A stretch of 64,000 nucleotides of DNA from Bacteroidales bacterium (GTDB lineage Bacteria; Bacteroidota; Bacteroidia; Bacteroidales; WCHB1-69), in NCBI GenBank assembly GCA_024400635.1, contig JAKSMI010000002.1, positions 120,305 to 184,304 of the forward strand. Direction: 5' to 3'. The translations under genes were made by a program, and so were the position numbers. The notes beneath the pieces were generated by a model. It had not been told where the DNA came from, ran no database searches, and saw nothing but the letters and a program-made list of their open reading frames with translations. This document shows, in pieces, positions 53,447-54,640 of the stretch (positions are counted from its first letter, which is position 1; the number at the start of each line of letters is the position of its first letter).

Positions 53447-54640
53447 ATGAGCAAGATAGAAGAACTAATTAAGAAACATTGTCCAAACGGGGTGGAATAT
53501 ATTCCTATTGGGCAATTGATTTCAAGAGTAAGAGAAAAAGGCAAAAACAATCCTGATATTCAAACAGTGTATGCCATTAGCAACAAATTAGGTGTTGTTA
53601 AATCTTCAGATTATCACGATTTTGAAATACATAGCAGCGACACCTCTAATTATGTTGTATTACGAAAAGGTAATTTCGCATATAATCCTGCACGTTTAAA
53701 TATTGGTTCTATAGCATATTTGCAAACTAACGAAGCAGGATTAGTAAGTCCTATGTATGTTGTATTTCAAATCAATGAAAAACTGATTACGCAAGAATAT
53801 TTGTTTTTGGTAATAAAATCTCAAAGAGTAATATCATTAATAAATGGACTTACAGAAGAAGGAGCAAGGTTCCGTTTTGATTTTGAACGTTGGAATAAAA
53901 TTTCCATCCCCCTCCCGCCGCTCCCCGTGCAGGAGGAAATCGTGCGGATATTGGACAAGTTCACTACGCTGGAAGCAGAGCTGCAAGCAGAGCTGGAAGC
54001 ACGGCGGAAACAGTATGAGTACTATCGGGATAAGCTGCTGAATGTAGATTGTAGAATGCAGAATGTAGAATGGAAGAAGTTGGGAAACATTGGTAAGGTC
54101 TGCATGTGTAAGAGGATATTGAAGCAGCAAACCTCAGCAGAAGGCGATATCCCATTTTTCAAAATAGGAACTTTTGGAGGAGAAGCGGATGCATATATTT
54201 CACGAGAGTTATTTGAATTATACAAATCGAAGTATTCATATCCTAAAAAAGGAGATGTGCTTATATCTGCTGCTGGGACAATTGGAAGAACTATTGTTTT
54301 TGATGGAGAACCAGCGTATTTCCAAGATAGTAATATTGTTTGGTTAAAACATGATGAGACAGTTGTATTAAACTCGTATTTAAGATATTGCTACTCAATG
54401 AATCCTTGGGCGGTTTCTACAGGTGGCACTATCGCTAGATTATATAATGATAATATACTTAATGCTGTTATCCCGGTTCCGCCCCTTCCCGAGCAGGAGC
54501 GCATCGTTTCAATCCTCGACCGCTTCGACACTCTCGTGAACGACATCTCCCAAGGCCTGCCCGCCGAGATAGAGGCACGCAAGAAGCAGTACGAATATTA
54601 TAGGGATAAATTGTTGACGTTTAGAGAATGTAGAATGTAG
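53447..54640 (+). CDS. hsdS: Type I restriction-modification system specificity subunit (two TRDs)
   Basis: There are two target-recognition regions. Each is followed by a conserved region: [43 protein letters not shown], and [48 protein letters not shown]. Confidence 0.9.
   Translation: [397 protein letters not shown]
54037..54071 (+). repeat. Heptamer array inside hsdS, directly after the central conserved region
   Basis: GCTGAAT GTAGATT GTAGAAT GCAGAAT GTAGAAT is translated as [11 protein letters not shown]. The GCAGAAT unit supplies CAG at the position where the terminal array supplies the TAG stop. Confidence 0.85.

Follow-up and report, generated by a model that had tools for sequence, protein, structure and literature searches.

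The specificity gene of type I restriction-modification (R-M) systems, hsdS, is known to carry repeats that change what the enzyme recognizes. In type IC systems of the EcoR124I/EcoR124II kind, a change in the number of a 12-nt repeat alters the spacer length of the recognition site. In phase-variable hsdS genes, a simple repeat always lies between the two target recognition domains (TRDs), after the coiled coil, and either a full-length or a truncated HsdS is made, with different specificities (Atack 2019, PMC7383803). That survey counted repeats with units of 3 nt or more as simple when they had at least three perfect copies. Here we describe an imperfect heptamer tract at this same position, in the hsdS gene of a type I R-M operon of a Bacteroidales bacterium. 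The operon lies in a stretch of 64,000 nt (assembly GCA_024400635.1, contig JAKSMI010000002.1, positions 120,305 to 184,304 of the forward strand). We call this whole stretch the window, and all positions are those of the window unless a relative is named. The tract has one length in every allele compared, while arrays of the same heptamer family at the gene junctions of the operon vary in length, and the tract probably acts as a coding linker.

Cyanobacterial STRR repeats are comparable heptamer direct repeats. Arrays of the heptamer TAACTGA occur in Beggiatoaceae, Cyanobacteria, and Bacteroidetes (MacGregor 2015, PMC4679880). They are mostly intergenic, overlap stop codons, supply stops in all forward frames, lie just upstream of start codons, and fall occasionally within open reading frames (ORFs). 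They are absent from the intergenic regions of close relatives and break assemblies, and a role in rearrangement has been suggested for them (PMC4679880).

The heptamer tract in hsdS

The hsdS gene (53447 to 54640, plus strand) encodes a full-length, EcoR124-like HsdS of type IC, with 397 aa and two TRDs. It was assigned by Pfam Methylase_S matches in two stretches, by PDB entry 7bst_A at 1e-38, and by the PADLOC model Specificity_I. In the translation, the 11-aa core of the first conserved region (CR1) is encoded at 54008 to 54040 (plus strand). An imperfect heptamer tract of 33 nt follows directly (54041 to 54073, plus strand; sequence, translation, and Tandem Repeats Finder [TRF]), and it encodes 11 aa that link CR1 to TRD2. 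It sits between the TRD-coding regions, after the coiled-coil conserved region and before the VEWKKLG of TRD2. The frame after the CR1 core reads AAT GTA GAT TGT AGA ATG CAG AAT GTA GAA TGG. TRF reports a period-7 array at 54040 to 54072, with 4.7 copies and 84% matches. The units are AATGTAG, ATTGTAG, AATGCAG, and AATGTAG, with no identical neighbors, and by the three-perfect-copies criterion of Atack 2019 the tract does not count as a simple repeat.

At its 3' end, hsdS enters a second array, which keeps the same heptamer phase and reads TTT AGA GAA TGT AGA ATG TAG. This array (54623 to 54679, plus strand; sequence and TRF, the latter giving period 7 and 7.7 copies at 54625 to 54678) supplies the stop of hsdS at 54638 to 54640 and abuts the start codon of the next gene, IVP1. 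In the central tract, the C at 54059 keeps the frame open, and this one base alone prevents a TAG. The frame is read through at this point only because the stop register is occupied by GCAGAAT, or by GAAGAAT in relatives. A preliminary description of the locus, made from the letters alone, had given this sequence at 54037 to 54071, the shared phase of the two arrays, the array-borne stop, and the translated linker, and all of these were borne out. It had also held that a T-to-C change removed the stop. The C is indeed all that prevents TAG, but the GCAGAAT variant is common, turning up in all arrays of the locus, so that the change is not a unique event, and in relatives the base is A, with T never observed.

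The central tract has several counterparts in the operon, where the heptamer forms at least six arrays. Arrays of the GTAGAAT type are found at 49648, 54041, 54625, 55032 (inverted at 55079), 57095, and 57509 (inverted at 57556), at junctions of genes or modules. A two-unit heptamer probe (at most 2 mismatches) gave 27 matches in the window against 0.59 expected, and none of 100 shuffles reached 27. Within the window, the arrays are confined to this operon; a lone 2-mismatch match at 48357, inside hsdM, is not an array. Since the same heptamer family recurs across the operon, the central tract is one local member of it and not a peculiarity of hsdS. Because 7 and 3 have no common factor, a GTAGAAT array offers TAG and ATG in every frame within 21 nt. 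The ORFs that enter arrays (hsdS, IVP1, IVP2, and an orphan conserved-region fragment) stop at an array-borne TAG. The exception is hsdM, which has a TAA stop at the first degenerate unit of its array (49648 to 49684, plus strand; probe, TRF, and anchor lengths). Each IVP gene starts directly after an array. The central tract is the sole place where the stop register is disarmed.

The tract lies in an otherwise ordinary protein. The order TRD-CR-TRD-CR, with KQYxYYRDxLL in both conserved regions, is normal for type IC, and the features expected of a type IC HsdS are all there: a pair of Methylase_S TRDs, tetrapeptide repeats in the central CR, the KQYEYYRD motif in the terminal CR, and hsdM and hsdR in the operon. 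The HsdS of EcoR124II (7bst_A, 1e-38) aligns through both conserved regions. CR1 matches the central region of EcoR124, with its TAEL repeats, and CR2 (13-aa core, 54584 to 54622, plus strand) matches the terminal region. CR1 is thus of the central type, with tetrapeptide repeats, and not a second CR of the terminal type. The preliminary description had seen the same module order in both halves and had taken hsdS for two fused half-genes. The order is there, but it is the standard HsdS design, and alignment with EcoR124II HsdS through a central-type CR1 and a terminal-type CR2 does not support the fusion. The two-module layout is normal HsdS architecture, not evidence of recent fusion.

The tract aligns with SFKEGEVEW of EcoR124II HsdS, between the central helix and TRD2. 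The typical linker of the family is LL[ST]F-E/D-G-x-x-VEWK[KT]LG, also written as the type LL[ST]F-EGRTD-VEWKKLG. In the homologue P0020, which has the same TRD2 type, a linker of equal length (10 aa, TFEEGDEVVE) precedes the conserved VEWKKLG, and only GT(G/A)GAATGG is common to the two linkers at the DNA level (P numbers denote homologous proteins, and L numbers related contigs or loci that were matched). These alignments suggest that about 24 nt of native linker gave way to the heptamer sequence, or evolved into it, while the length stayed the same. It would have arisen either when array sequence was swapped in for the native linker or when an array-split ancestor was fused by loss of a TAG.

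Other repeats were seen in HsdS proteins. CR1 of the window holds a 12-nt in-frame repeat (53968 to 54001, plus strand; TRF period 12, 2.8 copies; allele comparison), which encodes LEAE/LQAE. Its copy number is 2.8 in the window, about 3.8 in L151, and about 4 in L131; CR1 of L142 was also compared. Among the long HsdS homologues (about 600 to 640 aa; P0002 to P0120 and P0251 to P0399), many carry a variable number of peptide repeats after the second CR-type motif. These repeats are SRAEQ (one to four copies), NGTER (one to four copies), TDRQ, and ERER, and sibling clusters differ by 5-aa steps.

Comparison of alleles

We compared the central tract in three hsdS alleles from three samples: the window, L132 (SRR21150854), and L151 (SRR21150880). 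All alleles are consensus assemblies, and two assemblies of the window sample were identical. The lengths of the tract and of the other arrays were taken between fixed anchors. The tract measures 30 nt between the KLL and WKKLG anchors in all three alleles, in the same register, and the odd unit GATTGT is common to them. The alleles differ in TRD1 and/or TRD2, and L151 also has a different TRD1. Within the tract, the only differences are ATG or ATA and the codon in the stop register, which is CAG in the window and AAG in the other two. The stop-critical base is C in the window and A in the two relatives, and it is T in none of the three.

The non-coding arrays vary. Those upstream of IVP genes measure 57 and 64 nt in the window, 92 nt in L131, 50 nt in L132, 43 nt in L150, and 36 nt in L151, and those downstream of IVP genes measure 31, 31, 59, 73, 59, 38, and 52 nt. 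All of these length differences are multiples of 7. The array after the hsdM stop is 31 nt long in the window (49654 to 49684) and 52 nt long in L152 (1729 to 1780), with three extra units and changes within units. On either side of this array the two strains are nearly the same, with a single nt of difference in about 2.7 kb. Because the non-coding arrays differ in 7-nt steps, gain and loss of units is frequent in this heptamer family, and the non-coding heptamer arrays of the locus are hypervariable. The central tract, to judge from the alleles, is inherited and point-mutating and does not appear to be remade by slippage. It would lie in a conserved CR1 block around which TRDs were exchanged.

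Interpretation of the tract

We favor, with a probability of roughly 0.6, the reading that the central tract derives from an array and has been conserved as a coding linker, with its frame and length under selection, and that it is a latent site of phase variation. We suggest that a short, imperfect array of the GTAGAAT type was fixed as the linker between the CR1 coiled coil and TRD2 of an ordinary, full-length type IC HsdS. Slippage would occur in the repeat family, but selection would purge it from the central tract, since a change of one or two units breaks the frame and the length of the linker sets the spacing of the TRDs. The lack of identical adjacent units may also damp slippage in the tract. 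In this scenario, the tract would be part of a conserved scaffold around which TRDs are exchanged. The gene would retain a latent capacity to split into two half-genes, through a change of C or A to T or through the gain or loss of one unit.

Several points weigh against this reading. The alleles number only three, two of them from related run accessions, and consensus assemblies hide minority length variants. The same repeat family is unstable nearby, so that rare slippage in the tract is likely. Relatives have true contingency repeats, G8/G10 or (GACA)n, at the exact junction where the tract lies. Half-size HsdS subunits of type IC systems are known to be functional, as with EcoDXXI and with truncations of EcoR124I. 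Finally, the stop-critical base is one of the two variable positions of the tract, which could reflect a history of toggling.

The alternative with the most in its favor, possible but doubtful, is the repeat-number switch proposed in the preliminary description. Gain and loss of 7 nt by slipped-strand events would toggle between full-length HsdS and a half-size TRD1-CR1 protein, possibly accompanied by a separate TRD2-CR2 protein, and specificity would change. As a mechanism, such a switch belongs to the published class (Atack 2019), and the tract has the position of the simple repeats in known phase-variable hsdS genes (PMC7383803). The heptamer family is hypervariable in these loci. The expected effect of one unit on the frame was confirmed in silico: all eight single-unit losses or duplications truncate HsdS at 204 to 222 aa, after TRD1-CR1. 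Most of the simulated products end in ...KLLNVECRM*, and the tail ...ECRM* is like the natural C terminus. The in-tract ATG remains in frame with TRD2 in five of the eight.

Related hsdS genes carry other repeats at the same place. In L134 to L141, the CR1-TRD2 junction (KLLTFNDLN followed by SVEWKKLG; about 3340 in L134) contains a poly-G tract. Seven samples have G8 there and one has G10, and hsdS was called as two pieces of 194 and 167 aa. In L123 (95 to 200), the junction contains about 20 copies of (GACA). Judged by their repeats, these hsdS genes are likely to be truly phase variable.

In the window, the evidence points away from an active switch. A comparison of unit counts across strains gave an invariant 30 nt in the three consensus alleles, whose non-coding arrays differ. 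The tract has no three perfect units, and its neighboring units differ. The eight predicted frameshift products and the C-terminal half were all absent, by exact look-up, from a collection of 15 billion proteins, a search whose scope is set by the full-length hsdS itself, found only in one metagenome-assembled genome (MAG; Bacteroidales, GCA_024500545.1) and in one identical Logan contig. A pattern scan of JGI metagenomes for central heptamer tracts returned two true matches, both at hsdS 3' ends, and two viral scans returned no true match. Among the best 150 matches of a phmmer search against 1.84 billion protein representatives, no further linker coded by heptamers was present.

It is unlikely that the tract is the relic of a fusion, in which two half-size hsdS genes, once separated by a stop-bearing array, were joined by a change of TAG to CAG (AAG in relatives). 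Arrays elsewhere in the locus do end ORFs and precede starts. At the stop-register base, one allele has C and two have A, which would fit two independent escapes from T, and hsdS of L134 to L141 is split, though by poly-G. However, TAG is found in none of the three alleles, and a single C-to-A or A-to-C substitution explains the bases equally well. CR1 is of the canonical central type, and the linker has the length seen in homologues without an array, as would be expected of a gene that was always full-length.

A role at the RNA level is very improbable. The tract is 87% complementary to 55079 to 55109 and 84% complementary to 57556 to 57586, the inverted ATTCTAC arrays downstream of IVP1 and IVP2, and a long-range stem with either could affect processing or translation of an hsdS-IVP transcript. 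The minimum-energy fold of the first IVP cassette pairs its upstream and inverted arrays around the IVP ORF. However, the inverted arrays have closer and better partners than the central tract, and the complementarity is an automatic result of repeat identity. Chance periodicity in an ordinary linker can be dismissed almost entirely: native linkers (EGRTDVEW; GAAGGCAGAACGGATGTGGAATGG in L131) already resemble array units, but the 27 probe matches against 0.59 expected, the arrays all in this one operon, and the TRF score of the tract alone argue strongly against it.

IVP cassettes at the hsdS conserved region

IVP1 (54680 to 55054, plus strand; Pfam and NCBIfam; stop in the downstream array) and IVP2 (57157 to 57531, plus strand; Pfam) encode four-helix-bundle proteins of PF05635/TIGR02436. 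The PF05635 E-values are 4.6e-29 and 4.3e-29, respectively, and that of TIGR02436 is 1.9e-32. IVP2 has three base differences from IVP1 near the start and is then identical. To our knowledge, PF05635 four-helix-bundle genes have no known function outside the Avd of diversity-generating retroelements (DGRs). The IVP was considered as such an accessory Avd and was rejected, with a DivGenRetAVD score of 20.4 bits against a cut-off of 80 and no reverse transcriptase among the ORFs examined at 38 to 64 kb.

Each gene is part of a cassette that spans about 0.5 kb and consists of an array, the IVP gene, a second array, and an inverted one; the two cassettes are located at 54560 to 55175 and 57033 to 57653. 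After the three differences near the start of the IVP gene, they match base for base throughout the downstream arrays. Upstream, the array of IVP2 (57095 to 57156, plus strand; TRF) is the longer by one 7-nt unit. In cassette 1, a direct array at 55032 to 55065, a 13-nt loop, and an inverted array at 55079 to 55109 (together 55032 to 55109, plus strand; TRF) form a predicted hairpin of -27.6 kcal/mol, with a z of -6.6. Cassette 2 has its downstream direct and inverted arrays at 57509 to 57586 (plus strand; TRF). When the whole of cassette 1 is folded at minimum energy, the IVP ORF is enclosed by a pairing of the upstream with the inverted array, and the predicted geometry resembles that of an rRNA intervening sequence.

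Direct copies of hsdS conserved-region sequence (AAGCARTACGAATATTAYCGNGAYAAATTRTTGAC..., repeat family D3) flank each cassette. The CR2 core is the left copy of cassette 1, and an orphan hsdS CR2 fragment of 20 aa, with no TRD, lies at 57040 to 57094 (plus strand). The right-hand copies are native hsdS 3' ends. That of cassette 1 (ATG-KQYEYYRNKLLTFKEK..., 55117 to 55164, plus strand) equals the native hsdS 3' end that is uninterrupted in L131, and that of cassette 2 (19 aa, 57594 to 57653, plus strand) matches the native C terminus of several HsdS homologues. L131 is 93 to 98% identical over AlbA_2-IVP2-PDC-S01-hsdR, and its hsdS runs uninterrupted into the sequence found right of cassette 1 (L131 1440 to 1620), which makes it an empty site. 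The 3' part of the left copy and the 5' part of the right copy are cassette-specific and common to both cassettes. This mosaic looks like the product of recombination within the conserved region. The central tract was also considered as the footprint of an IVP cassette in CR1. This idea was rejected as not parsimonious, because the array follows KLL directly, lacks the cassette-specific ACGTTTAGAG, and is accompanied by no inverted array or second CR copy.

The association of IVP genes with hsdS recurs. Five of the six IVP protein clusters that were looked up lie directly after hsdS in type I R-M loci. The IVP gene follows hsdS in L132, L134 to L141, L142 to L145, L150, and L151, and also in L123, and it lies beside a YebC gene in L147 to L149. 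Our searches of the searchable literature returned no description of IVP with type I R-M, nor of heptanucleotide repeats in hsdS.

Some IVP homologues (P0133, P0147, P0167, P0170, P0171, P0174, P0188, and P0190) often have terminal extensions that are encoded by other heptamer arrays, for example, MRNEELGIRN, MRNSQFAIRNAQL, and ...GECGRRSAE. From these extensions, heptamer arrays specific to each lineage seem to bracket the IVP genes of many genomes.

The surrounding operon

The type I R-M operon of the window is broken up by accessory genes (Pfam, NCBIfam, and PADLOC). The order is hsdM, Fic/Bro, two YhcG/DUF1016 genes, a Bro-N fragment, hsdS, IVP1, AlbA_2/Schlafen, IVP2, AAA_14/DUF4143, and hsdR. 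A tyrosine recombinase of the phage-integrase family (46366 to 47628, minus strand; Pfam Phage_int_SAM_5 and Phage_integrase) lies about 470 bp upstream of hsdM. hsdM (48103 to 49653, plus strand) encodes the type I methyltransferase (Pfam N6_Mtase, 2e-116, and HsdM_N). It is followed by the embedded Fic/Bro gene (PDC-S04) and the two YhcG/DUF1016 nuclease genes (PDC-S02), at 49713 to 52821 (plus strand; Pfam and PADLOC). Downstream of hsdS are the embedded gene for an AlbA_2/Schlafen-type ATPase (55175 to 56845, plus strand; Pfam), the gene for an AAA_14/DUF4143 ATPase (PDC-S01; 57742 to 59079, plus strand), and hsdR (59009 to 62131, plus strand; Pfam HSDR_N, SWI2_SNF2, and EcoR124_C). The PDC-S01 ATPase gene is preceded by three 33-nt direct repeats (ATTTGAATCATCGAAAAAATGTT...) at 57657 to 57756, just upstream of its start and overlapping it, and these are kept in L131 and L150.

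A second AlbA_2/Schlafen ATPase paralogue lies further upstream than the tyrosine recombinase (44172 to 45860, minus strand). It is inverted relative to the AlbA_2 copy of the operon, with 98 nt of inverted similarity at 71%. About 24 nt past its 3' end is a perfect 11-nt tandem repeat (AAAGTTCTCTT, 5 copies; 44094 to 44148). The sequence of the YhcG gene start (ATGAGCAAGATTGATAAACCGATGAA) is found at 53312 to 53337, 50591 to 50616, and 51733 to 51758. An orphan copy of it stands 110 bp upstream of hsdS, and the start of hsdS itself is 77% similar to that sequence. The orphan start is further evidence for the operon as a mosaic joined at short conserved segments. Exact look-ups of the YhcG, AlbA_2, and Bro fragment proteins of the window returned contigs of the same sample or nothing.

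Rfam gave no rRNA in the window and no family for the heptamer arrays. A scan for terminators and promoters showed no enrichment over shuffles. Both left junctions of the cassettes have a sigma-70-like -35/-10 match (54614 to 54643 and 57084 to 57113), in which the conserved region supplies TTGACG and the array, at a distance of 18 nt, supplies TAGAAT. The relevance of such a match in Bacteroidales is doubtful.

Heptamer arrays in other genomes

Arrays of at least four NNAGAAT units were found at 120 loci or more in contigs drawn from one genome per species, across many phyla. The statements that follow are limited to the matches listed. The phyla represented are Bacteroidota, Cyanobacteria, Planctomycetota, Patescibacteria, Clostridia, and others. 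The arrays (L002 to L121) are mostly intergenic, often run from a stop codon, and are often followed by an inverted array. Arrays of other heptamers (CGGAATA, GGGAATT, GTCAATT, GGATGAA, and CGGTGTT) lie beside them. The adjoining ORFs are unrelated housekeeping genes, and none of the 88 ORFs in a Pfam scan matched PF05635. We therefore rejected the idea that the arrays belong to IVP genes in particular: a jackhmmer search turned up IVP homologues at just 3 of the 120 array loci, and none of the 88 adjacent ORFs was PF05635. With so few IVP homologues at array loci, the arrays are a general intergenic class.

In L006, from a Phycisphaerales MAG, the ORF of a RecG-like helicase (minus strand, about 3256 to 3878) reads through two (AGAATTC)4 arrays in frame. 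The arrays encode NSEFRIQNSEF and are about 600 nt apart, and one of them lies in an insertion just before a conserved ALMAPTEILAEQH motif. After hsdS, this ORF is the second example of array sequence that became fixed within a coding region.

Discussion

The preliminary description of the locus was accurate in what it observed, and its interpretation was partly supported. The central tract matters in either state. Should it slip, phase variation by a repeat in hsdS, a class that controls methylome switching and barriers to phages or plasmids, would gain its first case with a heptanucleotide unit and its first case from gut or rumen Bacteroidales. Even if it is static, the contrast within one repeat family, hypervariable in non-coding sequence and frozen as a TRD-spacing linker, amounts to a natural experiment on how selection acts against slippage.

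What is more original is the context, namely, the hypervariable heptamer arrays at the junctions and a cassette that targets hsdS. IVP genes recur at the hsdS 3' end between heptamer arrays, with insertion polymorphism, and this context may matter more than the tract itself. We put forward, as a speculation with the odds against it, that the arrays are hypermutable junction modules, with a stop and a start on offer in whatever frame enters them. Together with the conserved-region repeats, they would let small cassettes with IVP genes, and possibly with AlbA_2 or PDC genes, plug in and out of type I R-M operons of Bacteroidales through recombination. The central tract would then be the same device, toggling hsdS between fused and split forms through a single base (C or A to T) or a single unit. 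If this is true, the locus would be a contingency locus built on heptamers and linked to a cassette, not described before, that targets hsdS.

The locus shares features with several described systems and differs from each. EcoR124I and EcoR124II of type IC are close in protein architecture. 7bst_A is the best solved relative, the motifs of CR1 and CR2 are shared, and so is a 12-nt in-frame repeat in CR1 that varies between alleles. However, EcoR124 has no heptamers, and the tract of the window stands in place of its short SFKEGE linker after the TAEL region. The phase-variable hsdS genes (NgoAV with its poly-G; Atack 2019, PMC7383803) are close in the placement of the repeat. In both, a tract whose unit is not a multiple of 3 lies between the TRDs, right after the coiled coil, so that a shift of frame would leave an HsdS with TRD1 only, which is predicted to dimerize; moreover, relatives of our hsdS have G8/G10 or (GACA)n at the same junction. 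The window differs in its heptamer unit, in the imperfection of the tract, in a length that is invariant in three alleles, and in that no off-state was observed.

The intergenic heptamer arrays of the TAACTGA or STRR-like class are close to the array family. As in that class, five non-coding arrays lie at gene boundaries here, overlap stops or stand just before starts, and carry stops in all forward frames, and NNAGAAT arrays at large are spread widely and patchily beside unrelated genes. The differences are the NNAGAAT unit, the association of the arrays here with IVP cassettes and a type I R-M operon, and the one array that is read through as protein. The accessory defence candidates that PADLOC recognizes in type I R-M loci are represented by PDC-S04, two PDC-S02 genes, and PDC-S01, which interrupt this operon. 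Unlike those candidates, the IVP gene has no PADLOC model, and the junctions here bear heptamer arrays and duplicated fragments of the hsdS conserved region. Finally, the cassettes resemble the intervening sequences of 23S rRNA, in that an ORF of PF05635/TIGR02436 is bracketed by inverted repeats able to form a stem. They differ in location, at the 3' conserved region of hsdS or between hsdS and hsdR instead of in rRNA, and in that their inverted repeats are heptamer arrays.

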